From positions 81,758 through 145,757 of the forward strand of contig CAYMGM010000003.1 of the NCBI GenBank assembly GCA_964390005.1: DNA of 64,000 bases, given 5' to 3'. The notes below the pieces were generated by a model that searched no databases, had not been told where the DNA came from, and saw nothing but the letters and a program-made list of their open reading frames with translations. The translations under genes were made by a program, and so were the position numbers. Of the stretch, positions 22,985 through 42,609 are shown piece after piece. This stretch comes from an uncultured Rhodospirillaceae bacterium. GTDB lineage: Bacteria; Pseudomonadota; Alphaproteobacteria; UBA9219. Within the stretch, counting starts at the first letter, position 1. Each line of letters begins with the position of its first letter.

Positions 22985-23506
22985 TTAAGCTAAGACCTCC
23001 ATGAGCGCGCCATTTTCTGTTGAAACCCCTACGGCATAACGACAAAAGAACGGCTCTGAAAAAATCCCTTGAACGGTAAGGGTGGGGCGGGGGTCTTGTA
23101 CGCGCGCCAAGGTTAGATGCGGCGCGTAGCTGGCGCTAGATGTCAACGAATGGCAGCCTTCCTTTTCGATGATAGAGACGGCTTTTTTCTGCGCCTCGAG
23201 CAGCTGGGGCGGGCGGTTTGTCAAATACTCGGCCCAATAAAAACCTTGGTGTGTTTTCGTGCCTTCCCGAAAATGAAACGCTGTCAAGGACAAGGGTAAG
23301 TCATCAAGGGGCTGTATCGCTTCGAACAAAGCGCACGCCATCGCGGGGCTTGGCGCATAAAATTGACAAAGAGTCACATGAGGAAGGGCCGCGACGCCTA
23401 ACAAATAGCCCTGTGCCACCGGGCCAAACAACGCTTGGGCTTGGCTGATCGCCTGCGCGGTAAAGTGTTCATCCTGTGGAACAAGAACCATATTATAGCG
23501 CTGCAT
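22985..23506 (-). CDS. 2H phosphoesterase superfamily protein (ThpR/LigT-like RNA 2',3'-cyclic phosphodiesterase)
   Basis: Two HxTx motifs with correct spacing: LPHVTLCQF and APHLTLARV. Start re-picked at MQRYNMVLVP (23506), because the longer ORF would run into the phaC terminator. Confidence 0.7.
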   Translation of the reverse strand: MQRYNMVLVPQDEHFTAQAISQAQALFGPVAQGYLLGVAALPHVTLCQFYAPSPAMACALFEAIQPLDDLPLSLTAFHFREGTKTHQGFYWAEYLTNRPPQLLEAQKKAVSIIEKEGCHSLTSSASYAPHLTLARVQDPRPTLTVQGIFSEPFFCRYAVGVSTENGALMEVLA

Positions 23507-23546
23507 TGTCCTGTCCTTTGAAGCGAAGGGGCTTGGCGCATCATAA

Positions 23547-23583
23547 AACAAAAGGGCGGCTCGGAAAGCCGCCCTTTTTTGAT
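23547..23583 (-). terminator. Intrinsic terminator downstream of phaC
   Basis: GGGCGGC / GCCGCCC 7-bp GC stem (23554..23560 and 23568..23574) with a 7-nt loop. On the minus strand it is followed by TTTTGTTTT; A- and T-tracts lie on both sides. Confidence 0.75.
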
Positions 23584-23599
23584 TTTTTAAGGGATTCTC

Positions 23600-27632: not shown

Positions 27633-28622
27633 ATGCGTGTTGAAGAAGCCTATATGGACCGCAACCTAGCGCTTGAGCTGGTGCGCGTGAGCGAAGCGGC
27701 GGCTTTGTCGGCGTCTCTTTTGGTTGGGCGCGGCGATGAAAAAGCCGCCGATCAGGCCGCGGTGAACGCGATGCGTCGCGCGCTGAATGTGCTGGATATC
27801 GAAGGCACTGTGGTGATCGGTGAAGGCGAACGCGACGAAGCCCCGATGCTTTATATCGGCGAAAAGGTCGGGACCGGCAAAGGGCCCAAGATCGATATCG
27901 CGTTGGATCCGCTGGAAGGCACGACCATTTGTGCGACGGGCGGCCCCAACGCGCTGGCCGTGATTGCTATGGCGCAAGATGGTGGCTTTTTGCACGCGCC
28001 GGACGTTTACATGGATAAAATCGCCATTGGCGCCGGGCTACCACCGGGGCTCGTCGATTTGGATGCGCCCGTTGCCGAAAATCTGAAAAATCTCGCGCGC
28101 GCCAAAAATGCCGATTTGTCGGATTTGCTGGTTTGCATTTTGGACCGTCCCCGTCATCAGGAACTGATTGCCAAAACCCGCGAAACGGGCGCGCGCATCA
28201 TGTTGATTGGCGATGGTGACGTTTCGGGCATTATCTCGACCTCGACGCCTGACAGCGGCGTGGATATGTATGTCGGTATCGGCGGCGCGCCAGAAGGCGT
28301 TTTGTCGGCGGCTGCTTTGCAGTGCATTGGCGGGCAAATGCAGGGGCGTTTGTTGTTCCGCAACGATGACGAAAAAGCGCGTGCGGCCAAGGCCGGGATT
28401 ACGGACCTGAATAAAAAATATGAAATGAACGAGCTGGCGCACGGCGAAGTGATGTTTGCGGCGTCGGGCGTGACCAGCGGCACGATGTTGCGCGGCGTTC
28501 GCCGTTTTGCGGGTGGGGCGATCACGCATTCGATCGTTATGCGCTCGAAAAGCGGGACGACCCGTTATATCGAAGCGCATCATAACTTCCGCCGTAAGCC
28601 GTTTTTGATGCCGCAGGAATGA
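27633..28622 (+). CDS. glpX: Class II fructose-1,6-bisphosphatase
   Basis: LALELVRVSEAAAL, DIALDPLEGTT, GDGDV and GIGGAPEGVLSAAAL match GlpX blocks. Confidence 0.92.
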   Translation: MRVEEAYMDRNLALELVRVSEAAALSASLLVGRGDEKAADQAAVNAMRRALNVLDIEGTVVIGEGERDEAPMLYIGEKVGTGKGPKIDIALDPLEGTTICATGGPNALAVIAMAQDGGFLHAPDVYMDKIAIGAGLPPGLVDLDAPVAENLKNLARAKNADLSDLLVCILDRPRHQELIAKTRETGARIMLIGDGDVSGIISTSTPDSGVDMYVGIGGAPEGVLSAAALQCIGGQMQGRLLFRNDDEKARAAKAGITDLNKKYEMNELAHGEVMFAASGVTSGTMLRGVRRFAGGAITHSIVMRSKSGTTRYIEAHHNFRRKPFLMPQE

Positions 28623-30406
28623 CGGACGACACGGCCTTTTTAGGGGTCGAGGCGTCCTTTACCGGACGTCGCTGGGAAGCGCGAGCGTACGACGAAAGAA
28701 CGGCGCTGGCGCTTTCTCAGCGTTATGACATCCCCGATGTGATTGCCCGCGCGCTATCGGCGCGCGGCCTAGGCCTGGACGACGCAGGCGCTTTTCTTGT
28801 GCCGCGCTTGCGCGATTTAATGCCCGACCCCAGTTCCTTTCGCGCTATGGATCCAGCGGTCGATCGTTTTATCGCGGCGGTTCGGGCGGGCGAAACCATT
28901 GCCGTCTTTGGCGATTATGATGTCGATGGCGGGACATCGTCGGCGCTGATGCTGCGCCTTGGGCGGGCGCTTGGCGCGAAGATGCGCCTTTATGTGCCGG
29001 ACCGCCTCGCCGAAGGTTATGGCCCCAATCCCGCGGCGATGCGCCGGTTGCGCGAAGAAGGCGCGGGGCTTTGCGTTTGCGTCGATTGCGGGACAACGGC
29101 CTATGAGGCGCTCACGGCGGCGCAGGATGTTGGCTTGGACGTTCTTGTCATCGATCATCACGCGGCTGAGCCGTCTTTGCCGCCTGCCGTGGCTCTTATC
29201 AATCCCAATCGTTTGGATGATCCCAGCGCGGTGCCATTTGGCGCGCTGGCAGCCGTTGGTGTGACGTTTTTGTTTTGCGTGGCCGTTTGCCGGGCTTTGC
29301 GTGGGCAGAACTTTTTTTCGGATGCGCGGCCTGCGCCTGATTTGATGCGCTGGCTTGATTTGGTCGCGCTTGGGACTGTGTGCGATGTCGTGCGTCTGAC
29401 GGGGCTTAATCGCGCCTTTGTGACGCAAGGGCTGAAAGTTATGGAAAGCGCCCCGCAAACGGGCGTTCGGGCGCTGATGCGCGCGGCGGGAGCCAAAGGC
29501 CGCGTCGATACCTATACAGCTGGGTTTATTCTGGGCCCGCGCGTGAATGCGGGCGGACGCGTTGGAAAATCGGATCTCGGCGCGCGGCTTTTGGCGACGG
29601 ATGACGAAGCCGAAGCTGTGCAATTGGCGGATGCGCTTCATGCGTTGAACGCGCAGCGGCAAGAGGTCGAGGCGGGCGTCTTGGCCGAAGCCGAGCGGTT
29701 GATGGAAGAGGTGGATACGGAAGCGCCCCTGATTTTTGCGGCATCGGAAGGCTGGCATCCGGGCGTGATCGGCATTGTGGCCTCGCGCTTGAAAGAACGG
29801 TATCACCGTCCCGCGATTGTTGTCGCGCTGGAAGGCGCTGAAGGAAAAGGATCGGGCCGCTCGGTCACGGGCGTCGATTTAGGCGCGGCGGTTATTGCCG
29901 CGCGTCAAGCCGGGCTTCTTTTGGCTGGCGGCGGGCACAAAATGGCGGCGGGTTTGACCGTGGCGCGCGATCAGATCGCGGCGCTTCAGGCTTTTCTAAG
30001 CGCGCGTATCGGCAAGCAAATGGAAGCTGCGCCGCTTCGCCCCAGCCTGTCGATTGACGGGCTTTTGGGCGCTCAGGCGCTCGCGCCAGCGTTTTTAGAA
30101 AAATTAGCCGCGCTGGCGCCGTTTGGTACGGGCAATCCCGAGCCGCGTCTTGCCATCGCCGATTGTAAAATCATTCGCGCCGATGTCGTCGGCGAAAAGC
30201 ATGTGAGTTTAATCGCGATGCAAGGTGGCACGCGGCTGCGGGCGATTGCTTTTCGCGCGATGGAAAGCGATTTAGGCACGGCGCTGATCAGCAGTCGCGG
30301 GAAGACTTGTCATTTAGCTGGGTACTTGCGTGCCGACGATTTTCGCGGCGGCGATGCCATGCAATTGGTTGTGAACGATGCCGGTGGGGCCGCCGAAGGC
30401 CTTTAA
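28619..30406 (+). CDS. recJ: Single-stranded-DNA-specific exonuclease RecJ
   Basis: DHH motifs (FGDYDVDGGTS, VIDHHA) and DHHA1 GGGHKMAAG. The start overlaps the glpX stop (ATGA). Confidence 0.92.
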   Translation: MTDDTAFLGVEASFTGRRWEARAYDERTALALSQRYDIPDVIARALSARGLGLDDAGAFLVPRLRDLMPDPSSFRAMDPAVDRFIAAVRAGETIAVFGDYDVDGGTSSALMLRLGRALGAKMRLYVPDRLAEGYGPNPAAMRRLREEGAGLCVCVDCGTTAYEALTAAQDVGLDVLVIDHHAAEPSLPPAVALINPNRLDDPSAVPFGALAAVGVTFLFCVAVCRALRGQNFFSDARPAPDLMRWLDLVALGTVCDVVRLTGLNRAFVTQGLKVMESAPQTGVRALMRAAGAKGRVDTYTAGFILGPRVNAGGRVGKSDLGARLLATDDEAEAVQLADALHALNAQRQEVEAGVLAEAERLMEEVDTEAPLIFAASEGWHPGVIGIVASRLKERYHRPAIVVALEGAEGKGSGRSVTGVDLGAAVIAARQAGLLLAGGGHKMAAGLTVARDQIAALQAFLSARIGKQMEAAPLRPSLSIDGLLGAQALAPAFLEKLAALAPFGTGNPEPRLAIADCKIIRADVVGEKHVSLIAMQGGTRLRAIAFRAMESDLGTALISSRGKTCHLAGYLRADDFRGGDAMQLVVNDAGGAAEGL

Positions 30407-31260
30407 GGGCAGCTTAACGTAATGGTATCATACTGTCCTCCGGAGGCGCTCTTGGTAACGCCTGTAAAATTGGGTGTGCAATACCAATAAATGACGAAGG
30501 ATTTCACATAATTTAAGCAAGTGTCACCGTAAAGATTGTTGGGGCCCGAGATTGTGCAGGAACTTTTTCCGTTACAATAAGATTGACTTGAACCTGTAAC
30601 GTTTCCGTTGGCGTTGTTTCCGCATGCAGATGCGCCATAACTTGCCGATGTAACCTGGATGAAGGAATAATCCGACGTTGTAATAGGCGTTCCAAAGGAA
30701 CCCGCAAGAACGACGGGATAATTGATATAAGTCGCAACGGGAATTCGTATTTGTAACGTTTGCCCGCTGGATAATGATGATGAAGCCGCAACCCAACCAC
30801 CACTGTTGACGTTGACTTGCCCTGTTTGAGGAAAGATTTGGATCGGAACGGTGCCCGAAAAGCCACCCGTTACCGTCGGGATATTTGTATAGTTATAGCT
30901 ACCATCGTACGCCGTGAATTTTAAAGAAAAGGCGTCAGGCATGGTTGCCCCCGCCGTGCTGCCGATATTGCTCCAGTTCGTTCCGTCACAATATTTCAAT
31001 GCGCTTCCAGTCCATTGCACGATGCCGGCGTGTGCGGTATCGCATGTGTCAGTACTGGCGCCAAAAAAATATGGGGCCCGTTGCCAGATTCCGTTTTTGC
31101 ATTGGAAAAGCGTGTCCCAGTCCGCACCGTTTGTTTTGTCGGGCGTGCAGGCGCTTCCGAAATTGTGGGCTTCATTCCCGACCGTTGCCGCTTGGGCTGT
31201 GGCGATTAAACAAAGACACGCCGCTTGAATCCAGAATGGGGATGAGAAAAAACGAAACAT
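30403..31260 (-). CDS. Secreted Cys-rich protein with a C-terminal SUEL-type (galactose/rhamnose-binding) lectin-like domain
   Basis: Start re-picked at ATG 31260 (GGAGG RBS 8 nt upstream). Signal peptide MFRFFSSPFWIQAACLCLIATAQA. The C-terminus IQVTSASYGASACGNN...SQSYCNGKSSCTISGPNNLYGDTCLNYVKSFVIYWYC follows the Gal_Lectin pattern (SAxYG..C...CnGkxsC...GDpC.g..K.l.v.Y.C). Confidence 0.7.
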   Translation of the reverse strand: MFRFFSSPFWIQAACLCLIATAQAATVGNEAHNFGSACTPDKTNGADWDTLFQCKNGIWQRAPYFFGASTDTCDTAHAGIVQWTGSALKYCDGTNWSNIGSTAGATMPDAFSLKFTAYDGSYNYTNIPTVTGGFSGTVPIQIFPQTGQVNVNSGGWVAASSSLSSGQTLQIRIPVATYINYPVVLAGSFGTPITTSDYSFIQVTSASYGASACGNNANGNVTGSSQSYCNGKSSCTISGPNNLYGDTCLNYVKSFVIYWYCTPNFTGVTKSASGGQYDTITLSCP

Positions 31261-31296
31261 AAAAAGACCTCCGATCCTATTGCGTGAAAGGAATGT

Positions 31297-31650
31297 CACC
31301 AAGGCGCAAGTGCCTTGGTGACCGGAGGTTCAAAACCGTCTAGATAGAAACGGCGCGACGCTTTTTAGCTTAAACTCTGCTTTGCCGAAGCAAAGCAAGA
31401 GCGGCGCTTGGACATATAGCGCCGCCCTCCGGTCCTTTGAAAAGACCGAGGGGCGGCATCTCTGGTGACGAGACAACGTTTCTTGTCAAGACACGACACA
31501 ACAACCTTCTGCGCAAAGCACGCAAAGCGAGCATGATCTGATCTTTAAAAGAAAACGCAAATCTCTATCTCCTGACGACCAAGATGCCTTGGCCGCTATC
31601 TAGAAAGGGTTTGAAGCCCCGGAAAGTAGACGGACTACTTTCGAAGAGAA
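31297..31650. ncRNA. Candidate structured non-coding RNA or long structured leader; identity and strand unresolved
   Basis: Lies in the 410-bp ORF-poor gap between two minus-strand genes. A long-range helix pairs 31321..31347 with 31596..31622 (shared core TCTAGATAG / CTATCTAGA). Nested hairpins lie at 31297..31320, 31375..31401, 31401..31426, 31421..31457, 31472..31487, 31579..31592 and 31622..31642. See finding. Confidence 0.35.
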
Positions 31651-31713
31651 AGTGACAGAAACGAATGAACTTGGCAACAGCTTTGGTCTTTTATGTGTGT
31701 GTCCGGCTTTTTT

Positions 31714-32709
31714 TTACGTTGATTTTAATGAGGCTTCGACAGCGCGCCGCAGGCTTTGCACCACGCAGCCAAAGACGGTATCGGGCGACAGGATTTTTTC
31801 AATCACCAAGGTTGATCCAGCCGGATCGGGCGTGAAAGAGCTATGGCCTTGCGCAGGCCCTTGCGGCGTGACGGCGACAAAGCCGCGGCGGCCTGCATAA
31901 GCGTCAGGGATAAGGTGATAAAGGGACGTGTGAACATCGTGCATCACGGCGTCGATGCCGAACTTGCGCTGGTCCATCTCTTGCGGCGCGGCGATCAAAG
32001 CGGCGCAAAGCGCGGCGCGCGCAGGATCGGCAGCCAAGACCTGCAACAGCTTTTCTTTGCGGGCGGGGGTAAAGGTCAGCTGGTGCGTTAGGTTCATCGG
32101 GAACAAAACCAACGGCAAAGCGCTGGCCAGAACAGCGCGCGCATCTTGGGCGGCCATGTAAAAATTAAACTCGGCCTCTGGGGTAATGTTACCTTGGCGC
32201 GTTGCCATGTCGCGCGCAGGCATTGGCGCGGTGCAGCCGCCCATGATTAAAATCCGTTTGACGCGATGCATCGTCTCGGGATCTTTTCGCAGCGCTTCGG
32301 CAATATTCGTTAGGGGGCCTGTTGCCGTGACGATAACGCTTTGCGGCGGTTGGGCACGCAAGGTTTCAAGAAGAAAAGAAACGGCTTTTTGTGCCGAAGA
32401 TTTTGTCGATGCGTGCGGTAAAACTGTCCCGCCCAATCCATTTGCGCCATGCGCATCGTCGCCTTCAAGAGGCGGGCCACCGGAGGGACCTGCCGTGCCT
32501 TCGTAAACGGCAAGAGACGGCGCGTTTAAAAACGAAAGGATGTCTAAAGCGTTTTGGGTGACTTGTGGTAACGCGGTGTTGCCAAAAACGGCGCAAGCGC
32601 CAAGAATCTTGAACGATGCCGGATGCGCCAAGGCGACGGCGGCAAGCTGCATTTCATCGCCGCCCCAATCGCCGTCAATAATAAACGAAGTTGGCGCGGG
32701 CATGATCAA
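31714..32709 (-). CDS. Nucleoside hydrolase (IUNH family)
   Basis: FIIDGDWGGDEMQLAAV (DxDxxxD(D/E) metal/ribose motif), ATGPLTNIA and EAEFNFYMAAQDARAV (FNxxxDPxAA-like). The start overlaps the upstream stop (ATGA). Confidence 0.85.
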   Translation of the reverse strand: MIMPAPTSFIIDGDWGGDEMQLAAVALAHPASFKILGACAVFGNTALPQVTQNALDILSFLNAPSLAVYEGTAGPSGGPPLEGDDAHGANGLGGTVLPHASTKSSAQKAVSFLLETLRAQPPQSVIVTATGPLTNIAEALRKDPETMHRVKRILIMGGCTAPMPARDMATRQGNITPEAEFNFYMAAQDARAVLASALPLVLFPMNLTHQLTFTPARKEKLLQVLAADPARAALCAALIAAPQEMDQRKFGIDAVMHDVHTSLYHLIPDAYAGRRGFVAVTPQGPAQGHSSFTPDPAGSTLVIEKILSPDTVFGCVVQSLRRAVEASLKST

Positions 32710-33218
32710 GTGCCGCCGTTCTGATGGCGGACATATTCAAGCGCCGTGACATCGGCGACATGCGGCCCCCAAACGTCGCGGAGTTGGACTTGTCCTTCGC
32801 GCAAGGTCTTGAGGCGATTTTCCAAGCGGCCAATCGTATAGGCCGAAATAATCGGCGGGACGACAAAGATGATCAGCTGGCCAACAGCGGCAGCGCCGAA
32901 CATGACGATCCATGTCGTGGGGTTGTGGACGATGCGAACGGCGGTCTCCATGGATTGGCCCTTGCTCCACAGCTCGATCAGAAAGGGCGCAACGCCAGCG
33001 ACATTCATAAAACCGACAGCGGCTGTTGTTGATTTTTCAGGGTCCATATCGGTGAAAAGGGCGATGATGGTTGGGATTAGCCCTAAACAAATAAGAAGCG
33101 TCGGCAAGCCAAAAGGCACCAAAGCGCCGATAAGGGTCATCAAGATGATTAGGCCGATGCCTCCTTTGCCAAGGCGGTGCTTTTGACTGGGAAGAGGGGG
33201 CGGGCGGCGATGGATCAT
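32706..33218 (-). CDS. Small integral membrane protein (about 4 TM), hypothetical
   Basis: 170-aa ORF with hydrophobic helices GIGLIILMTLIGALVPFGL, LLICLGLIPTIIALF, VGFMNVAGVAPFLIEL and WIVMFGAAAVGQLIIFVVPPII. Translationally coupled to both neighbours. Confidence 0.6.
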   Translation of the reverse strand: MIHRRPPPLPSQKHRLGKGGIGLIILMTLIGALVPFGLPTLLICLGLIPTIIALFTDMDPEKSTTAAVGFMNVAGVAPFLIELWSKGQSMETAVRIVHNPTTWIVMFGAAAVGQLIIFVVPPIISAYTIGRLENRLKTLREGQVQLRDVWGPHVADVTALEYVRHQNGGT

Positions 33219-33232
33219 GCGGTCTTATCCTT

Positions 33233-35269
33233 TTAGCCGTTCAGGTTTTCAAAAAGCGCGCGCACAAGTGACAACGCAATGAGGACGATGGAAAGAAAAC
33301 TGGCAATGGTGGCGGCGACGGGGCGTCCCAGCGTTTGATTGACCTTGTCGCGGTTCTTTAGCATTTTGTCGATCTGCGTCATTTCGCGCGTGATGTCTTG
33401 GTACATCAGGCGCGCGCGCAGAAAATCCGTTTCATCGGCTTGAATGCGTTTCGGGTCGTCAACCGCGCGCAAGATCGCGCCAAGGTTACCGTTTGACGCC
33501 GCTTCTTTAACCTCGCGACGGATTTTTTCCTGCAAGGGCTTGCTGATAAAGTGCCGGATGTTCGGCTCGATCATCGGTAGAATCCAGGCGGCAAGGCCTG
33601 GCACCTTATCGGGGCCGTAGCGGTACTGTAGCTCGCTGAACAGGTTCAGCATCGCGATGCCGCGGCGCAAAGGCTGCTCGCCCGGGCTCATCGCGCCAAA
33701 AAGCGCTTCGCTTCGTTTATCGCGGATCAACAGATAGGCTGCTAAATGACGGTCCATCGGCTCGGCTGGGCGCGCGCCTTGGGTCGCCAGCGCTTCAAGC
33801 GACGCTAAAACATGGCGTGGCGATAGAATATAAAAAGACCGCAGCATGGGGCTGAGGCACGGCAAATATTGGTTTAGGTCGTAAAGCGCCCGCTCGATCC
33901 CGTTGCCGAACGTCGTGCGGTCGATGTGATTGCGCACGCGGTCGATTTGCTGAATCGTGGGCAGCATTTCCGTTTGCATCTCGCGCTGCATGCCCGCCCA
34001 AGCGCCGACAAGGCCAGTCGAGATCAACTCGCTAATCGTTTGGACATTGCCGTTCGTCAAAACGGAGTAAGCCAAAAAGCCCGCAACGCCAGACGGCATA
34101 ACCGAAATGCCGCGGTAGCGGATCGGGCCGTCGGGATCCAGCGCCATGCTGACGCGCGCGACAAGCTGATCTTGTTGATGTCCGCTTTTGCCGCGCTCTA
34201 AGATCTCTTCGGCGATCTCGCTGACTTTCTTCGATCGGTCTTCGTCGCCTAGCGATCGCATCAGCCATTTTTGAAGCTGACCTGTCTCGACCATCTTGAC
34301 GGCATCGGGCGGGTTGTTGACCAGCGCTGCCGCAAGCGGGCGCACATGCCAATATTCTTTTCCTGCGATGTCAAAATGGCGCGTGGCGCGCCGTCCCGCA
34401 TCCGAACTTTTGGGCGTCATGCGGCGGCCCGATTGCCATTGCTCAAGCTCGGCCGCGCTCCACCTTTGCGCCGGATCGTCGGCCAACAGACCGCGCAAAA
34501 GCTCGATATGCGACGAGGCAAGGCGTCGCGCGCCGATCAGCGTGCTGAACGTTCCTTTTTCCATTTTCATGGCTAAAAGCGTTTGATCGTCCATATCGGC
34601 CAAAGGATTCTGGCCCATGATGATCATGGCCATCGTGACACCAAAGGCATAGCAATCATCAACGTGAAGGCCAGGGCCGCGTCCCGCCGGTACGGCTTGA
34701 GAACGGTCAATTGGCTCGAACAAGGCCGGTTGATCAAAGCCGCAAGGAATGGTCAGGCAATCGCCAAACTGTGGCGGGGTCGAGCTGGCATGCCGCCAAA
34801 AAATGTTGGTCGGCCTGATCGCGCCATGAACAATGCCCGTGCGCTGAAAATCGAGCAAAGCGCGGATAAGCGGCGCGATAAAACTGTGTTTAAGCGAATC
34901 CTCGTTCATGACGGGATGAGGATCTTTTAAATTCTCCCAATAGCGCGGCGCGAGCGGCGTTTCAAAGGCAGCGGCAAAAAAAGATCCGCCGCGTTCAGGC
35001 CAATGAATAATGCCCGCTTCGCGCAAGCGCGGCACAGACGGATTGTCAAGCGAGCGCAGCGCCGAGACAAGCTCAAGTCGCGGCAGGGGGCTGTTGGTGC
35101 AGATCATCGCCATCAAATCCGACGATCCCATGCCGCGAAACTGCGCGGCAAAGGCCTCGCCGCCACTGCTGTTAAAGGCAGGCAGGGGCTGGTCCTGAAA
35201 AATCGCGACCCGCCCTTCAAGCAGAAGGGGCGCGACTTTGGATTCTGGTGCCGGGGCTTGAGGTGACAT
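33233..35269 (-). CDS. Membrane-anchored protein with an N-terminal Ser/Thr-kinase-like domain lacking catalytic residues (pseudokinase)
   Basis: GIVHGAIRPTNIFW aligns to the kinase catalytic loop HRDxKPxN with HRD replaced by HGA. No VAIK lysine is recognisable, and QFGD stands in place of DFG. DCYAFGVTMAMIIMGQNPL and LLADDPAQRWSAAEL match subdomains IX and XI. About 400 further aa are unassigned, followed by a C-terminal TM (VAATIASFLSIVLIALSLV). Confidence 0.75.
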   Translation of the reverse strand: MSPQAPAPESKVAPLLLEGRVAIFQDQPLPAFNSSGGEAFAAQFRGMGSSDLMAMICTNSPLPRLELVSALRSLDNPSVPRLREAGIIHWPERGGSFFAAAFETPLAPRYWENLKDPHPVMNEDSLKHSFIAPLIRALLDFQRTGIVHGAIRPTNIFWRHASSTPPQFGDCLTIPCGFDQPALFEPIDRSQAVPAGRGPGLHVDDCYAFGVTMAMIIMGQNPLADMDDQTLLAMKMEKGTFSTLIGARRLASSHIELLRGLLADDPAQRWSAAELEQWQSGRRMTPKSSDAGRRATRHFDIAGKEYWHVRPLAAALVNNPPDAVKMVETGQLQKWLMRSLGDEDRSKKVSEIAEEILERGKSGHQQDQLVARVSMALDPDGPIRYRGISVMPSGVAGFLAYSVLTNGNVQTISELISTGLVGAWAGMQREMQTEMLPTIQQIDRVRNHIDRTTFGNGIERALYDLNQYLPCLSPMLRSFYILSPRHVLASLEALATQGARPAEPMDRHLAAYLLIRDKRSEALFGAMSPGEQPLRRGIAMLNLFSELQYRYGPDKVPGLAAWILPMIEPNIRHFISKPLQEKIRREVKEAASNGNLGAILRAVDDPKRIQADETDFLRARLMYQDITREMTQIDKMLKNRDKVNQTLGRPVAATIASFLSIVLIALSLVRALFENLNG

Positions 35270-35386: not shown

Positions 35387-37246
35387 CTAGATCTGACGCA
35401 CGCCCCGCGTCTCTTTTCCGGGGCGGTCTGACCAGCTTTGAGCGACGCCAAGCCCAAGAAGAATTGCATAACTGGCGGCAATGGCTGGAATTTGCAGGCT
35501 AAAGTCTGCCAAAGCATGCAGCCCCACCAAAACACTGGCGGCCAAACCTAAGGTCGGCACATATTCCATGCGTCGTCGCTGCCGCACGCCTTGCGCACAA
35601 AGCGAAAGAAGGACCAAAAGCATGACGCCAAAAACAATGCAGGCTGGCAAGCCCCACTCGACGGCCAGCTCAAGATAATCGTTATGGGCGTGTTGAAAGC
35701 GCAAAGGCAGCGTATCGTTACGATAAAGGCGGAACGCGTTTTCAAAAGCGCCGAGCCCAAAGCCAAGCCACGGATTGTCCAAAATAGCATCGGCGGCCAG
35801 ATCATAGGCGCGCAGGCGCATTTCGGCGTCTTCGCCCAAAGTCGGCGAAACGCCTTCGCCGCGCGCGACAAGCAAATGTCCCGATGCGGCCAAAAGGCCG
35901 CCTAACAAGCCGATCAAGACAAGGCCGATGGCCAGGCCGCGCCAGCTTATGCCAAAACGGTTGATGATCAGACAAACGACAAAGACAAGCGCCCCCCCCG
36001 CCGTGCTGAAAAAGCCCGCGCGCGATCCCGATAAGACAAGAGCACAGAACAAAAGAACAGGCGGAAGAAAGACAAACAGGTCTTTGCGTTTCAGCCCCGT
36101 GCAAAAAGTCACGAAACGAATGCCCCACGAAAAATTCGTTCCGCCCATGCCAAAACGGTGTTTCATTTGCTGCCAAAGTAAGGCCAAACTTGCCAGAAAG
36201 GCTAAGCCCGTGTAGGTCGCAAAAGAGTTCTTGTTGATAAACGGCCCCGTGACAAAGCCTTCATACATCGTTTTGGGAAACCATAGAACGCGCTCTATCC
36301 CCAGCCAATGATCCAACAAGCCATATACGGCGTAAAAACAGGCCGTGCCGACAAAGACGCGCAACATAAGCTTGGCGCGCGCGCCGTCTCTTCCGGCAAA
36401 CAAGGCCAACAGGAAAAAAACGACATAGGACAAAACACGGGTCAATGATTCCTGTGCCGCGCTGGGGTCGATTGAAATCGCGCCATCTGACGGCGATTGG
36501 CCCGTAAGGGGGGCAGCCTCGATCCACAAGGGATGATGCCACGCGAGCGGCGTCCAGCTTACGACTTGAACCCAGCTCCAGCCAATCAGCGCTGTCATCA
36601 AGCCAACGGCAACAGCTAGCCTTTTATAAGGCGCGGCGCCCTCCCACTTTTCAGGCTTTTTGTAACGCGCATAAAGCGCGGCCATTAAAATCAACGCGCA
36701 AAAAACGCCCATAAGATCGCTGGACCAAGGGCGGTTGGCCCCAAAAGGAAGCGGTAAAAGCGCCCACAACCCCATAAAAGCTAAAAACCATCCCGGCTTG
36801 TCGGCAAACAGGGGGGCGGTTTGTTTGGTTGCGGCTTTCATCGCCTGCGCCCGACGCCGCGGTTGAGACTTTTCTTCTGCAACCATCGCGTCAAACGCCG
36901 CGCGGGAGGGAAACGGTTTTTGCGGCCTTGGCTGCGGCAGAACGGGGGCTTCAGGGGCTTCCGTGAGCGCCGGTTCTTGCGGTTGCTCATTCTCTGGCGC
37001 TGGCTCTTGTTGAGGCTCTGGTGCGGGTGGGGCAGGGGCTTCTTGAGGCGCGATAATCTCTTCGGCGACCTTGACCTCTTCTGTCGTTTTTTCTGCTGCG
37101 TTTTCTGGCGCGACGGGCGGCTCGGGCAAATCTAACGCCAGATTTTCTGGGGCGACAGCTGCCTGCGTTTCAGCCGTGGCGCGCTTTGATGTCGCGCCTT
37201 TCTTTTTGCGAGAGCCTGTCCGTGAAGCGTTCTTTTTCGTAGCCAT
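35387..37246 (-). CDS. O-antigen ligase / Wzy_C-family polytopic membrane protein with a Pro/Glu/Ala-rich N-terminal extension
   Basis: At least 10 predicted TM helices and the motif FQHAHNDYLELAVEWGL (H.HN.YL..l.e.G of the Wzy_C/RfaL/PglL families). Start re-picked at MATKKNASRTGSRKKKG (ATG 37246). Confidence 0.8.
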   Translation of the reverse strand: MATKKNASRTGSRKKKGATSKRATAETQAAVAPENLALDLPEPPVAPENAAEKTTEEVKVAEEIIAPQEAPAPPAPEPQQEPAPENEQPQEPALTEAPEAPVLPQPRPQKPFPSRAAFDAMVAEEKSQPRRRAQAMKAATKQTAPLFADKPGWFLAFMGLWALLPLPFGANRPWSSDLMGVFCALILMAALYARYKKPEKWEGAAPYKRLAVAVGLMTALIGWSWVQVVSWTPLAWHHPLWIEAAPLTGQSPSDGAISIDPSAAQESLTRVLSYVVFFLLALFAGRDGARAKLMLRVFVGTACFYAVYGLLDHWLGIERVLWFPKTMYEGFVTGPFINKNSFATYTGLAFLASLALLWQQMKHRFGMGGTNFSWGIRFVTFCTGLKRKDLFVFLPPVLLFCALVLSGSRAGFFSTAGGALVFVVCLIINRFGISWRGLAIGLVLIGLLGGLLAASGHLLVARGEGVSPTLGEDAEMRLRAYDLAADAILDNPWLGFGLGAFENAFRLYRNDTLPLRFQHAHNDYLELAVEWGLPACIVFGVMLLVLLSLCAQGVRQRRRMEYVPTLGLAASVLVGLHALADFSLQIPAIAASYAILLGLGVAQSWSDRPGKETRGVRQI

Positions 37247-37371
37247 GCCAAGACCAAGTAAAAACAAAAGGTTATAATGTATTTCCCCGTCCTTTATAAA
37301 GCATCTTGCCGCTAAAGGCAAAAAAGGGATGGGTGTGTCTAAGTAATTAAAAAATAAGTCTAATTTGGATG

Positions 37372-38613: not shown

Positions 38614-38990
38614 GGAAAAACTCCTTTGGTTAAGTTTAGGTGGTTTGAAGAAATCAGACAGATCCGGACGACCTGTCGTCGAGACCGAGGGGGATAAAAA
38701 CACAAGCCGACTAAAGCTTGGTTAACGGGAAGTGTGATCTAACTTTTTGTTTTGTCAACGCAATCTTAAAGAATTCAGTAAAATCCGCAGGATGCGGGGT
38801 TTGTACACAGATAGGCATGCCGTTTGTGCCCGAATAAAAAGTGTGATTCGTTTGGGAAGAGGCACAAGGGGGCGCGAAGAAAAAAAGAAGGGAAGGGGTT
38901 TTTCTTGTTGATTTACGGCTTCGGCTCGTTTAACAGTGCGCGGCGCCCGATGATGCAGCCTGAGGGGCTGTTGTTTTGTGCGCAAGAGAA

Positions 38991-39066
38991 GTCCCCTTCG
39001 TCTAGAGGCCTAGGACACCACCCTTTCACGGTGAAAACACGGGTTCGAATCCCGTAGGGGACGCCA
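38991..39066 (+). tRNA. tRNA-Glu (anticodon UUC), CCA encoded
   Basis: GTCCCCTTCGTCTAGAGGCCTAGGACACCACCCTTTCACGGTGAAAACACGGGTTCGAATCCCGTAGGGGACGCCA. It folds as a cloverleaf (acceptor GTCCCCT/AGGGGAC, T-arm ACGGG-TTCGAAT-CCCGT, anticodon loop CTTTCAC) and is near-identical in layout to E. coli tRNA-Glu. Confidence 0.95.
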
Positions 39067-39073
39067 ACAAAAG

Positions 39074-39098
39074 AGCCGCCATTTGGGCGGCTTTTTTG
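39074..39098 (+). terminator. Intrinsic terminator after tRNA-Glu
   Basis: AGCCGCC-ATTTG-GGCGGCT hairpin followed by TTTTTT. Confidence 0.8.
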
Positions 39099-39342
39099 TT
39101 GGCGTTTTCTTCCGTAGAAAGAACCCGTAGGGCCGGCGGGCCGCCGGGGGCCTTTGTTATTCTTTCCGCGTCATCTCAATGTTTGATGGCTGAAACGCCT
39201 GTGAAGCGGTGGGAGAACTTAACGGTATTGATTTAAGACTATTTTAAGCTTGCCTTGCTAGCGATAGTATTCACACTCGTCGTGAGAGGTGGGATTCGCG
39301 CCTCTGCACGTTTCTTTCTGCCTATCCACTTGGGTGATTTCC

Positions 39343-42300
39343 ATGTCCTCTTTCCCGCTCAGAACATTCCTTGCCGCGTTGCTGGCTTCAAGCTGCTTTG
39401 TGCCTGTGGCGCAGGCGGCGACGATCACATGGGACGGCGGGGCGGGAACATCAAGCTGGTTTGATGCTAACAATTGGAGTGGAAATGCCGTTCCGACGAG
39501 TAGTGATGAAGTGCGGTTGGATGCAATAGGCGTTGACGTTAACGGACTTGTGGAAAGCACTGCGACGCTAAGCGTTGGGCATACAGGAACTGCTTCTTTG
39601 GCAATTGAGAATGGCGGCGCTGTTACGTCGTCTTCAGGTAATCATATTTTTGTTGGAAATGCCTCTGGCAGCAATGGAACGATTACAGTTAATGGAACGA
39701 ACTCGACGTTAGAAAGCGGAAACCAGCTTATTGTCGGATATCATGGCACGGGACGTTTAACCATTTCAGATGGTGGAAATGCAACAGCAGATTCAAGTAT
39801 TTATGCTGGTTACCTAACGGATGGTGTCGGCACGATTGTCGTTACAGGCTCTGATTCGATGTTGGAGAGTGGAAAACATTTTTTCGTTGGCTATTCCGGT
39901 AGCGGCAGCCTAACGGTTTCTGATGGTGGTACCGTCAGCTCTGCATCAGGGTATAATATTTATGCAGGTACCTATACTGGAAGCACAGGAACAATCACAG
40001 TAACAGACATTGGATCGACGTTGGAGAGTGGAAATGCCGTCGTTATCGGCAATTATGGCACTGGCACGCTGACAATATCTGGCGGAGGCTATGTCGGCTC
40101 TACGGATGACAGCATTTATGTAGGTTACAACGCTGGTAGCACAGGAACAATCACAGTAACAGGTTCTGGATCAACGTTGGCGAGTGGCAGAAATGTTTAC
40201 ATAGGCCAATCAGGCACAGGTACGCTGGTCATCTCGGATGGTGGTATTGTGAGTGATGCCTATGGAGAAATAGGAACCGTAGCTAACTCTATCGGCACAG
40301 TAACTGTAGTCGGTACAGGATCAAGGTGGACAAACTCTGATATTCTGTATGTTGGGCGTTCCGGTTCCGGAACGATGTTGGTTTCTTCTGGAGGCACTGT
40401 TAGTAGTGGCACCTCTTATATCGGGGCATGGAGCAACTCCACGGGCGACGTCACAGTAACCGGCTTGGGATCAACGCTGGAAAGCGGGCAGAATATTTCC
40501 GTCGGAAATGCGGGTGACGGCACACTCACGGTATCAGACTCTGGCACCGTTTCCACGTCTGGCGTCCTCACCATCGCGGCGGACACCGTCTCCACCGGTA
40601 CGCTGAACATCGGTGCGGCGTCGGGCTCTTCTGCCGTGGCTCCCGGCACGGTTACAGCCTCGCGCGGCATCGTCTTCGGCGGCGGCACCGGTACGATCGT
40701 CTTCAACCATACATCGACCAACTATACCTTCGCGTCGTCGATCTCCGGCGTGGGCACTATCGAGAGCGTCACGGGTACGACCTATCTCACTGGCGATCTT
40801 TCCGGCTTTTCCGGCACGTTCGATCTCGAGGGCGGGACGTTGAGCGTCGTGACCTCCGGCGTGCAGACCCTTTCAAACAGCCTCTCGGGCTCGGGCACCA
40901 TGGCCTTCGCCTCCGGCACCACCTACCTGACTGGCGACAGCTCGTCTTTCACCGGCACGGCAGCCGTGTCCGGTTCGGGGATCCTGTCCGTGAACGGAAC
41001 ACTCGGGGGTACGGTGGACGTAGCTGACGGCGGCACCTTGAAGGGCTCGGGCACCGTCGGTGGGATTGATGCGGCTTCGGGCGGCACAGTCGCCCCTGGC
41101 AACTCCATCGGAACCCTTTCTGTCTCTGGCAATGTGAGCTTTGCTAGTGGTTCGACCTATGACGTTGAGGCCAATCTTACCAGCTCGGACAAAATCGTAG
41201 CCACAGGCGCGGCCACAATCACGGGCGGAGACGTATCGCTGATCGCCTATCAAGGGGCGCTGCTTCGCGCCGGGACCACCTACACCATCTTGACCGCCGA
41301 TGGCGGCGTCTCAGGCACGTTTGACAGCATTTCTTTTGCCGATCCTCTTCTCTTTTTGACCGCGACGCTGTCCTATGATGCGACGGATGTTTACGCCTCA
41401 GTGATCCGCAATGGGGTTAGCTTGGCCAGCGTGGCCGGATCGGGCAATCAGGCGAACGCCGCCGCCGCAATCGAAAGCCTTGGCGCCGGGAATGCCGTTT
41501 ACGATGCCGTGGCCATGCAAAGCGATGTCGGCACGACACGCCAAGCCTATCAGGCTCTGTCAGGCGAGATTCACGCGAACGTGAAGGCCACGCTTCTTGA
41601 AGATCAAGCCGCCTTCGGGCGCGTCTTGGCCGGACGTTTGGCGCAGGCCGAAGACAATCAAACAGGGTTTGCCGCGCCGGTGACGGCTCCGGCCCCTGTG
41701 GTCGCTTCTGCGCGCGGGCGGATCCTTTATGGCGACAAGATCGCGAATGATGCTGCTGTTGCAAATGCCAAGATTGCGCCGACCGTTTGGGCGCAGGGCT
41801 TTGGCGGCTGGGGCAGCCGCGACGGCGACGCGAACGCCAGAGATTTTAAGCATCAAGACAAAGGTCTGATGCTGGGCGTGGACGGGATGATGGGGGATAA
41901 CTGGCGTCTTGGCCTCGCCTTTGGCTATGACCATGCGGATTATAATCAAGAGGACGAGACAGGCGACAAGGGCACGTCAGAGCGTTACAGCGTCTCGGCC
42001 TATGGCGGGCGGAGCTGGGGCAAGCTGAGCCTGCGAACTGGCCTTACCTATGCCTATAGCGACATCGACACCAAGCGGGGCGTGAGCTTTCCTTATTACA
42101 GCGATTATCTGAAAGGCTCCTATAACGCCCACAGCGTGAGCGGCTTTGCAGAAACGGCCTATGGCTTTGGCGACAAGGAAAGCAAGATCGAGCCCTTCGC
42201 CAATCTGGCTTGGGGTTATGTGAATGTGCCCGGCTTTACCGAAAAAGGCGGCGCGGCGGCGCTGACCGCCGAAGACAGCGACGGAACGCTGGGCAGCACA

Positions 42301-42609
42301 ACGCTGGGCGCGCGGGTGCGGCAAGTCTTGCCCTTCCTGACATCGGCCAACAATCGGGCGGCGTTCCAAGCCTCGGCGGGGTGGATGCACGCGATTGGCG
42401 ACGCGAACCCCGAGACCAGCTTGCGCTTTGCGGGCTCTCGCGCCTTTGAAACCCAAGCGGCCCCGCTGGCCCGCGATGCCGCTGTTCTTGGCGCTGGCGT
42501 TGATTATCTGATCGGCCAGCAAACCACGCTTGGCCTTGCGTACACCGGCCAGATCGGCGCGCACGCCGACACCCAAGCCCTTCGCGGGAATCTGAGCTAT
42601 CGGTTCTAA
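39343..42609 (+). CDS. Classical (type Va) autotransporter with a repeat-rich passenger
   Basis: Signal peptide MSSFPLRTFLAALLASSCFVPVAQA. ITWDGGAGTSSWFDANNWSG opening. Seven roughly 58-aa tandem repeats (G(S/T)xGT(I/V)TVTG..STLESG...(L/V)T(I/V)SDGG), then PATR-like beta-strand repeats. C-terminal beta-barrel ending LRGNLSYRF. Confidence 0.9.
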   Translation: MSSFPLRTFLAALLASSCFVPVAQAATITWDGGAGTSSWFDANNWSGNAVPTSSDEVRLDAIGVDVNGLVESTATLSVGHTGTASLAIENGGAVTSSSGNHIFVGNASGSNGTITVNGTNSTLESGNQLIVGYHGTGRLTISDGGNATADSSIYAGYLTDGVGTIVVTGSDSMLESGKHFFVGYSGSGSLTVSDGGTVSSASGYNIYAGTYTGSTGTITVTDIGSTLESGNAVVIGNYGTGTLTISGGGYVGSTDDSIYVGYNAGSTGTITVTGSGSTLASGRNVYIGQSGTGTLVISDGGIVSDAYGEIGTVANSIGTVTVVGTGSRWTNSDILYVGRSGSGTMLVSSGGTVSSGTSYIGAWSNSTGDVTVTGLGSTLESGQNISVGNAGDGTLTVSDSGTVSTSGVLTIAADTVSTGTLNIGAASGSSAVAPGTVTASRGIVFGGGTGTIVFNHTSTNYTFASSISGVGTIESVTGTTYLTGDLSGFSGTFDLEGGTLSVVTSGVQTLSNSLSGSGTMAFASGTTYLTGDSSSFTGTAAVSGSGILSVNGTLGGTVDVADGGTLKGSGTVGGIDAASGGTVAPGNSIGTLSVSGNVSFASGSTYDVEANLTSSDKIVATGAATITGGDVSLIAYQGALLRAGTTYTILTADGGVSGTFDSISFADPLLFLTATLSYDATDVYASVIRNGVSLASVAGSGNQANAAAAIESLGAGNAVYDAVAMQSDVGTTRQAYQALSGEIHANVKATLLEDQAAFGRVLAGRLAQAEDNQTGFAAPVTAPAPVVASARGRILYGDKIANDAAVANAKIAPTVWAQGFGGWGSRDGDANARDFKHQDKGLMLGVDGMMGDNWRLGLAFGYDHADYNQEDETGDKGTSERYSVSAYGGRSWGKLSLRTGLTYAYSDIDTKRGVSFPYYSDYLKGSYNAHSVSGFAETAYGFGDKESKIEPFANLAWGYVNVPGFTEKGGAAALTAEDSDGTLGSTTLGARVRQVLPFLTSANNRAAFQASAGWMHAIGDANPETSLRFAGSRAFETQAAPLARDAAVLGAGVDYLIGQQTTLGLAYTGQIGAHADTQALRGNLSYRF

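Follow-up and report, generated by a model that had tools for sequence, protein, structure and literature searches.

What lies between two minus-strand genes, a nucleoside hydrolase gene (IU_nuc_hydro) that stops at 31714 and a SUEL-lectin-like gene that starts at 31260, in a 64,000-nucleotide (nt) stretch of contig CAYMGM010000003.1 from an uncultured Rhodospirillaceae bacterium (the whole stretch is called the window hereafter)? Only short open reading frames (ORFs) are found in this gap, none of them with a ribosome-binding site. An initial annotation, made from the sequence alone, had noted a striking fold in it and had considered an RNA of no known kind, a 5′ leader of unusual size ahead of the lectin-like gene, or a permuted transfer-messenger RNA (tmRNA). 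According to our analysis, the gap holds a real folded RNA of about 350 nt on the minus strand, from 31645 to 31295. We consider it probable that this RNA is a structured 5′ leader of the lectin-like gene, in line with the second of these proposals, and that it belongs to an enlarged branch of the sRNA-Xcc1 kind, which has at least three members and stands ahead of genes for secreted or surface proteins.

The fold is strong and favours the minus strand. On the minus strand the 452-nt gap has a minimum free energy (MFE) of -172.8 kcal/mol (z -6.26), and none of 100 shuffled sequences folds as well; the plus strand reaches -157.3 (z -4.51). When the whole 64 kb were scanned on both strands with segments of 350 nt (1,820 in total), the minus-strand segment starting at 31291 was the top outlier after GC correction (z -3.83, with the runner-up at -2.92). 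The sequence of the window usually folds better on its G-rich plus strand, by a mean of ~13 kcal/mol, but at the gap this bias is reversed, the minus strand being better by 17 kcal/mol, which is about 2.3 standard deviations off the mean. The hairpins listed in the initial annotation were all recovered at their positions.

sRNA-Xcc1 (RF02221) is known from integron cassettes of Xanthomonas campestris and also from prophages, plasmids and genomic islands, and has so far been treated as an 88-nt trans-acting small RNA (sRNA). At the gathering thresholds of Rfam the only match in the window is a tRNA-Glu at 38991, and the gap is without a match. Below threshold, the gene-proximal third of the element matches RF02221 (Table 1) with an E-value of 0.0029 when the gap is searched alone; genuine members reached 58.7-79.6 bits in the same searches. 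The remaining matches of a permissive search of the gap (E<=10) are at chance level, for example to microRNA and CRISPR-repeat families. RNase P, 6S and signal recognition particle RNA, which the initial annotation had discounted, and riboswitches of any class are missing from the gap both at gathering thresholds and at E<=10. Its description as an RNA of no known kind holds in so far as no Rfam family reaches its threshold, but the gene-proximal third is a diverged sRNA-Xcc1-like module, and canonical Xcc1 loci have the long-range helix as well.

Homologues were found by scanning metagenome contigs with a 21-nt pattern common to the gap and the Xcc1 consensus (GGTTTTGARCCYCCGGYCACC). Among the 10 loci returned were two canonical Xcc1 loci (64-66 bits) and two loci, L026 and L020, that scored 40.7 and 37.2 bits against RF02221 at the homologous positions and thus, like the window, stay below the gathering score of 53. 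Both align with the window end to end, from a TTGNC box to the terminal hairpin and hence beyond the Xcc1-like part, and some of the blocks are identical over 25 nt among the three. The conserved blocks are, in order, GGGGCUUCAAAACC; AGCGGCCAAGGCAUCU.UGGYCGU.AGGAG; CAGAUGCCGCCYYUCGGUC-loop-GRCCGGAGGGYGGCG; UGUCCAAGC; GCUAAAAGCG.CGCGCCGUUUCU; and RCGGUUUUGAACCUCCGGUCACCAAG-loop-CUUGGUGRC. The host DNA has a GC content of 61% in L020, 47% in L026 and about 55% in the window, and we therefore conclude that different organisms share one RNA. Independent MFE folds of the three sequences give one architecture, and of the 94 pairs predicted by RNAalifold, 22 show compensatory changes. All three loci display the same order of parts, namely P0, the P1 5′ arm, P2, AGGAG with a long hairpin, CAGAUGCC-P3, H1, the P1 3′ arm and the terminal hairpin, with a start codon at most 35 nt beyond. 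We call this arrangement the large variant; this term and the "extended Xcc1 architecture" used below are definitions of the present analysis and not curated families. A model of the 3′ module of the large variant (R1) retrieves the three members at 127-148 bits, with everything else at or below 25 bits in 215 kb, and no further copy was found with it in the window or in 20 loci.

The central feature of the element is the long-range helix P1, which comprises 27-30 bp with a covarying box of 7-9 bp in its centre. The boxes of the 5′ and 3′ arms are UCUAGAUAG and CUAUCUAGA in the window, CUCAAAG and CUUUGAG in L020, and UUAACGAG and CUCGUUAA in L026. The two boxes of the window are perfectly complementary, and between the loci the sequence of the box is completely turned over with complementarity still perfect. 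On this comparative evidence P1 is proven by covariation, and it corresponds to the helix that the initial annotation had drawn between 31322..31347 and 31596..31622 (now 31322-31354 and 31592-31622). P3, H1 and the terminal hairpin taken together have 98.8% of their cells paired across the loci, compared with 35-55% for slid partners. Six one-sided changes in these helices (six of the seven variable positions) are absorbed as G·U pairs, two of them in the outer stem of H1, where 100% of cells are paired; P3 likewise retains its pairing via G·U, and in the terminal hairpin, which is kept in L020 and L026, a U-A pair becomes U·G. The opposite strand would have A·C mismatches at these positions, and the RNA is therefore assigned to the minus strand, as the fold statistics also indicate and as had been proposed initially.

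The same helix is present in canonical Xcc1. We compared five canonical loci, three of them metagenomic or viral (L019, L022 and L025), one on a Sulfuricystis plasmid (L033, 73.9 bits) and one in the Stx phage P13374 (L039, 79.6 bits). All five carry, about 110 nt upstream of the Xcc1 core, a segment that consists of G(C/A)UCAAAAC, a variable box and CGG, and this arm pairs with CCG, the complementary box (box') and CGGUUUUGAGC in the core. Together with the large variant, the boxes are perfectly complementary in 8/8 loci, and non-cognate boxes match over no more than 2-4 nt. Duplex energies, computed for seven loci, show that the best partner of every 5′ arm is its own 3′ arm, and L033 has a compensatory change even within the constant part of P1 (GCUCGUAAC/GUUACGAGC). 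The extended Xcc1 architecture, GCU(U)CAAAAC-box-CGG with CCG-box'-CGGUUUUGA and covarying boxes, is thus found in the element, and because the covarying boxes are cognate throughout, P1 is common to canonical loci and the large variant; covariation is seen for it in L020, L026 and the canonical loci alike. The 87-nt Rfam model lacks P1 and contains, as hairpin 2, a structure that competes with it. This suggests that RF02221 is restricted to the 3′ part of a larger unit, in which a 5′ arm pairs with that part via the covarying box.

Besides P1, the large variant and canonical Xcc1 share the motifs GCU(U)CAAAAC, GGCCGG.G.G..GGC, UGUACAA/AAUACAA, GCCGU.U and CGGUUUUGA.CC.CCGG.CACC. In both, the gene-proximal module contains GRCCGGRGG...GGC, UGUACAA, GCCGU.U and CGGUUUUGARCCYCCGGYCACC, a later hairpin begins at CACC, and a same-strand gene follows closely. 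The layout of H1 is that of hairpin 1 of the Rfam model, with an outer stem, an asymmetric loop and an inner hairpin, and the UUUUGA junction strand is present in the window element as well. The 9-bp outer helix of Xcc1 can also be formed, GACCGGAGG (31426-31434) pairing 9/9 with CCUCCGGUC (31320-31328), in competition with P3 and P1; the 3′ strand of P3 doubles as the 5′ strand of this Xcc1-like helix. Mobile-element occurrence is likewise common to both. They differ in length (88 nt against about 350 nt) and in what is placed between the arms, which in canonical Xcc1 is a small hairpin preceded by an intrinsic terminator (CCGCG-CCCGAUAGU-CGCGG-U7), but in the large variant P2, the AGGAG-bearing central hairpin of ~115 nt, and the 14-bp P3 that sequesters the Xcc1 5′ strand, so that the Xcc1 three-way junction is disfavoured by 15-22 kcal/mol. 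The downstream genes also differ, being SymE toxins, ORF6N/KilA-N(-like) genes and an annotated antitermination gene (P13374) in canonical Xcc1, and genes for secreted or surface proteins in the large variant. We read the element as an undescribed enlarged variant of the Xcc1 kind that, judged by its sequence, falls below the RF02221 cut-off.

The canonical unit itself was observed to be larger than the Rfam model (L019 8640-8860; L022 6160-6420; L025 3560-3830, minus; L033 1355-1625; L039 1160-1410). It consists, in order, of a sigma-70 promoter, a 5′ hairpin GGUG-CUCAAAA-CACC, the variable box, the intrinsic terminator with its conserved loop CCCGAUAGU and U7 run, the small hairpin and the Xcc1 core, and its 5′ hairpin loop and box show complementarity to the junction of Xcc1 and the hairpin 2 loop. 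This arrangement predicts a short terminated 5′ RNA of ~65-70 nt that would be a same-strand antisense to Xcc1.

Several parts of the large variant are conserved in shape rather than in sequence, or vary between the loci. At the position of P0, L020 (UGGCGGA/UCUGCUG, with three G·U pairs) and L026 (GUGCUGGC/GCCAGUGC) keep a hairpin of unrelated sequence. P2 has an alternative in the pairing of GGCAUCU (31582-31588) with AGAUGCC (31455-31461), which would close the central domain; both are sequence-conserved in all three loci, without variation to tell them apart. The GACAA...TTGTC hairpin of the initial annotation is present, but it is part of the central hairpin, whose sequence is variable between loci. 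Similarly, the C(UUCG)G hairpin exists, but as an extension of ~30 nt found in the window only, of a 4-bp inner hairpin of H1 that is AGCG-UUCG-CGCU in L020 and AGCC-UCGC-GGCU in L026. The local hairpin GCGGCGCT...AGCGCCGC can be drawn too but is not conserved, and the comparison favours the outer stem of H1 (Table 1) in its place. At 8-9 nt beyond the conserved AGGAG a start codon is found in each locus (AUG with 10 codons in L020, AUG with 7 codons in L026, and UUG with 24 codons in the window). The possible peptides are unrelated to each other, and these frames may be translated leader peptides or AGGAG may be a mere Shine-Dalgarno (SD) mimic.

Is the RNA a leader of the gene that follows? 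In all three loci the element ends 22-34 nt ahead of a same-strand start codon, and in the canonical loci the distance is 26-38 nt; in the window, the SD and AUG of the lectin-like gene lie 34 nt past the terminal hairpin. Downstream are the lectin-like gene in the window, a 223-amino acid (aa) lipoprotein gene in L026 and, in L020, a gene for a 96-aa signal-peptide protein followed by one for a 497-aa Peptidase_S74 fibre-like protein. All these products have a signal peptide or lipobox and show no significant similarity to each other; a search with the 96-aa protein returned only itself. The gene upstream of the element is divergent in L020/L035 and L026, and the promoter must therefore lie in that intergenic region. 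Sequence conservation among the three loci begins at the TTGNC box, and in L020 TTGACT-17-CATCAT passes the promoter scan. The window element probably has its own promoter as well. With a divergent upstream gene in L020/L035 and L026, a start codon 22-34 nt away and products that are exported but unrelated, the arrangement of the sequence points to a cis leader rather than a 3′ untranslated region (UTR).

Two of the three large-variant loci are in a mobile-element setting. The element of L020/L035 is located between DUF2958 and ArdC genes. That of L026 lies on an island of ~10 kb bounded by a tRNA and a repeat of the 3′ end of that tRNA (79-136 and 10080-10152; anticodon UUU by eye), which contains a P4-type integrase gene (assigned by eye), Abi_2, Hypoth_Ymh, and the element with the lipoprotein gene; the island looks like a small defence or exclusion island. 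Separately, the lectin-like protein (30403-31260, minus) and the S74 fibre-like protein of L020 (3716-5209, minus) were seen to share an N-terminal Cys...G...Y...C(D/N)G..W, which at a BLASTP E-value of 0.9 is not significant and may be a small module common to exported proteins.

That the element is instead an independent RNA, trans-acting or stable and of small to medium size, which ends at the terminal hairpin or is cut from a leader and is only incidentally adjacent to the lectin-like gene, appears unlikely to us but deserves to be weighed. In Xanthomonas, canonical sRNA-Xcc1 is a discrete RNA of ~88 nt on Northern blots, with ends mapped by rapid amplification of cDNA ends (RACE) (PMC2996969), the terminal hairpin is flagged as terminator-like by the scan in the window and in L020, and the 27-30 bp of P1 resemble a processing stalk. 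However, the tails after the hairpin are weak and U-poor (AUUCCUUUCA, CUCUCUGUUG, UUCAGGUC), the same-strand start codon follows at the short distances given above in 3/3 large-variant loci and in the canonical loci, and in 2/3 loci the conserved strand is complementary to the SD.

This complementarity points to how such a leader might act. The invariant strand GAACCUCCGGUC (31320-31331), which includes CCUCCGG, has three mutually exclusive partners. It could pair with CCGGGG of the 5′ arm to form the outer part of P1, with GACCGGAGG of P3 (9/9 pairs) to give the Xcc1 fold, or with the ribosome-binding site GAUCGGAGGU, and the choice of partner would set the translation of the downstream gene, the SD being masked by default. 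In the window, GAUCGGAGGU and ACCUCCGGUC (31320-31329) are complementary over 10 bp, and the SD region of L020 matches the conserved strand over 8 bp (CGGAGGUU). Folding predictions leave the SD unpaired with a probability of 0.0-0.25 across the three loci; for the window the value is 0.00-0.03 in three constructs that contain the leader and 0.25 in a leaderless one. When folding was constrained, the P1 state came out as the MFE or differed from it by no more than 1 kcal/mol; pairing of the anti-SD with the SD gave a state that equals full P1 in energy in the window and is less favourable by ~4 kcal/mol in L020. SD masking would be altered by a trigger acting on P1, either through stabilisation of its outer part or through cleavage or processing of the long helix, and the Xcc1 three-way junction would form only once the 5′ part is removed. 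From these modelled states we infer that translational gating would be the likely role, and processing of the long P1 duplex may be an equally plausible further layer of control. Leaders with a comparable logic are generally known from hok mRNA (fbi/tac) and the 5′ UTRs of type I toxins, where, as in the element, a long-range pairing closes a large domain and the SD is masked (predicted here). Canonical Xcc1 often stands ahead of symE type I toxin genes; unlike in these systems, the gene downstream of the element is not a toxin gene, and no antisense partner is known.

A number of observations weigh against the leader of the Xcc1 kind as set out so far. No more than three independent members of the large variant came to light, and P2, P3, H1 and the terminal hairpin show one-sided changes and no double compensatory change, so that the support for P3, H1 and the terminal hairpin is weaker than for P1. 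TTGCCA-17-CACTTT of the window and the corresponding site of L026 are below the threshold of the promoter scan and have a poor -10. In L026, the SD is not complementary to CCUCC, and the 3′ arm matches GGUCAAA just upstream of the SD instead. At the scale of the whole window, the RF02221 match is at noise level (E 0.28), like other chance matches, and is therefore no proof by itself. The Xcc1 fold is 15-22 kcal/mol less stable than the P1 state in the full-length RNA. Reciprocally, model R1 scores L033 at only 13 bits and misses the canonical loci L019, L022 and L025, and the element is therefore called related to RF02221 and not a member. An outermost helix, formed by 31685-31696 with the start-codon region, is significant when compared with shuffles (16 of 2000 match it), but it is no stronger than 146 of 1185 natural 54-mers (12%) and is therefore not relied on.

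A bolder view of the whole Xcc1 kind, to which we assign a low probability, is that of a programmable same-strand riboregulator on mobile elements, in which the hypervariable box of 6-9 nt and its complement would be an address, each copy would act on its own cognate leader, and the boxes would form an immunity or incompatibility code analogous to that of c4 in phages P1 and P7. Regulation by the short 5′ RNA of a copy, or by its Xcc1 core once processed, would then reach only the cognate leader of that copy, and in the large variant a sensor domain, either translated or structured, would be added for the control of surface-protein genes. In phages P1 and P7, short complementary boxes set heteroimmune specificity. 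The c4 antisense RNA (RF01695) and IsrK, which come from the immI-type region of antirepressor control, lie on the same strand of one transcript as their target, as is the case in the element, but no sequence or Rfam similarity to them exists in the gap, and the likeness is a functional analogy only. In Escherichia phage P13374 (L039 260-447 and 1283-1366) we observed IsrK (61.8 bits), C4 antisense RNA (77.4 bits) and sRNA-Xcc1 (79.6 bits) on one strand of a regulatory region, all within about 1.1 kb, around annotated antirepressor and antitermination genes. The same trio is listed close together in a table of a Xylella genome (PMC12189769).

Returning to the leader itself, its long helix might serve RNase III-type processing or mRNA stability without any switching, cleavage of P1 detaching the downstream mRNA from upstream read-through and the terminal hairpin then shielding its 5′ end as a cap. 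The P1 duplex is long, is interrupted by internal loops and surrounds a self-contained domain, the terminator scan flagged no intrinsic terminator between the hydrolase gene and the element in the window, and a perfect 11-bp hairpin comes right after the 3′ arm. Since this proposal is deduced from shape only and leaves the triad of CCUCCGG, GACCGGAGG and the SD as well as the conserved loops unexplained, we hold it to be improbable.

Still less credit, indeed very little, is due to an element that acts at the DNA level, either a miniature inverted-repeat transposable element (MITE) or other palindromic repeat, or a single-stranded DNA promoter of the Frpo type of conjugative elements. The two arms of 26-27 nt do look like terminal inverted repeats, and the neighbours of the L020 element, ArdC and DUF2958, are typical of conjugative elements. 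Yet no second copy was found in the 64 kb, either by BLAST of the gap against the window or by a search with one arm that allowed 3 mismatches, and a scan of the metagenome contigs with the arm consensus gave 0 matches. The arms covary and thus hold no fixed transposase-binding sequence, many G·U pairs are valid on one strand only, and the orientation to the downstream gene is fixed. A target-site duplication is missing, no -35/-10 pair lies within the stems, and canonical Xcc1 is a detected RNA. The MITE reading was rejected for its covarying arms and the lack of dispersed copies in the window and the scanned contigs. BLAST searches of plasmids (PLSDB) and phages with the three elements returned no homologues, and viral contigs, scanned with the conserved blocks, yielded nothing beyond chance matches or a single canonical Xcc1. 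Finally, the circularly permuted two-piece tmRNA on the plus strand, which had been raised on a loose visual resemblance, can practically be dismissed, as ARAGORN found none in the window (only tRNA-Glu at 38991), RF00023, RF01849 and other tmRNA families do not occur in the gap at E<=10, it is the minus strand that is conserved, the homologues stand on mobile elements ahead of genes, and neither a tag frame nor a CCA is present.

Table 1. Positions of the element, its parts and selected genes in the window.
Feature	Position	Strand	Remarks
Possible promoter	31649..31677	minus	-35-like TTGCCA 31677-31672, 17-nt spacer, weak -10-like CACTTT 31654-31649
P0 hairpin, GAAAGUAG-UCCGU-CUACUUUC	31622..31642	minus	directly 5′ of P1; pair probability 0.99
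P1 5′ arm, CCGGGGCUUCAAACCC-UU-UCUAGAUAG-CGGC	31592..31622	minus	variable box 31596-31604
P2 hairpin, CGGCCAAG-GCAU-CUUGGUCG	31576..31595	minus	
SD-like AGGAG	31569-31573	minus	conserved; base of central hairpin
Central hairpin, ~115 nt	31462..31575	minus	sequence varies by locus, fold kept; compensatory pairs present
Possible upstream ORF, 24 codons	UUG 31560 to UGA ending 31486	minus	
P3 hairpin, 14 bp, GCCGCCCCUCGGUC-loop-GACCGGAGGGCGGC	31421..31457	minus	97% of cells paired across loci
H1 domain	31357..31423	minus	outer stem GGCGCU 31418-31423 with AGCGUC 31357-31362; encloses conserved loop AUAUGUCCA and inner hairpin
C(UUCG)G tetraloop hairpin	31374..31402	minus	pair probability 0.87-1.0
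P1 3′ arm, GCCG-UUU-CUAUCUAGA-C-GGUUUUGAACCUCCGG	31322..31354	minus	variable box 31339-31347; contains conserved CCUCCGG (anti-SD)
Terminal hairpin, 11 bp, GUCACCAAGGC-ACUUGC-GCCUUGGUGAC	31295..31322	minus	pair probability 1.0; U-poor tail after it
Ribosome-binding region of lectin-like gene	31258..31276	minus	GAUCGGAGGU 31267-31276; SD GGAGG 31268-31272; AUG 31258-31260
Sub-threshold sRNA-Xcc1 (RF02221) match	31312..31434	minus	30.5 bits against a gathering score of 53; 54-nt insertion; gene-proximal third
IU_nuc_hydro (nucleoside hydrolase) gene	31714-32703	minus	
Lectin-like gene, secreted product	30403-31260	minus	weak SUEL-lectin Pfam match, 24.3 bits, under the cut-off of 31.4
Autotransporter and Wzy_C-type genes	39289-42609 and 44304-46289; 35387-37321	plus; minus	

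The flanking genes led to no usable orthologous leader in intergenic regions of relatives. The nearest homologues of the hydrolase reach no more than 59% identity, and their genes have a convergent neighbour within 0-46 nt of the stop; in the genome collections the nearest matches are 43-51% identical and belong to metagenome-assembled genomes labelled Micavibrio, UBA1002, Rickettsiales and Gemmobacter. None of those hydrolase-bearing relatives has a gap after the hydrolase gene. For the lectin-like protein, only three homologues were found, one with a different upstream gene and two without usable upstream sequence. The organism of the window is an isolated alphaproteobacterial lineage without close relatives in the searched collections. 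In contigs of the same species, the sequence of the gap is identical to that of the window. Between one of them, L002, and the window there are 59 differences, 58 of which are inside a glpX-recJ tract, and the comparison therefore holds no information on constraint over the gap.

The 58 differences of that tract (27821-29173) affect glpX as well as recJ in its 5′ half and are for the most part synonymous, and the 4.8 kb next to it contain one single-nucleotide polymorphism, which suggests a recombination tract. Ahead of the hydrolase gene (32706-35269, minus) are two ORFs, one of 170 aa that matches nothing in Pfam and one of 678 aa whose sole match, to Pkinase, is weak (20.8 bits). Since their start and stop codons overlap or nearly do so, these two ORFs and the hydrolase gene may form an operon; the context is absent at the closest hydrolase homologues. 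Near the lectin-like gene, two autotransporter genes, one with a Y_phosphatase3 passenger domain, and a Wzy_C O-antigen-ligase-like gene make the neighbourhood rich in surface functions. Elsewhere in the window, 23481-23589 gave weak Rfam matches to STnc320 (31.1 bits, E 0.08, plus) and MicX (23.7 bits, minus) and may be a palindromic terminator or small structured element, and the third-ranked structured stretch of the scan (38781-39340, plus, z about -2.8) includes tRNA-Glu at 38991-39066.

With the element, a structured RNA of ~350 nt that is backed by covariation joins the few large non-coding RNA elements known from bacteria. That one RNA is found in hosts of 47-61% GC and ahead of unrelated cargo genes points to strong selection and horizontal spread. 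It further provides a hypothesis on how leaders of the Xcc1 type might control toxin, antirepressor and surface-protein genes of phages, integrons, islands and regions that resemble integrative and conjugative elements.

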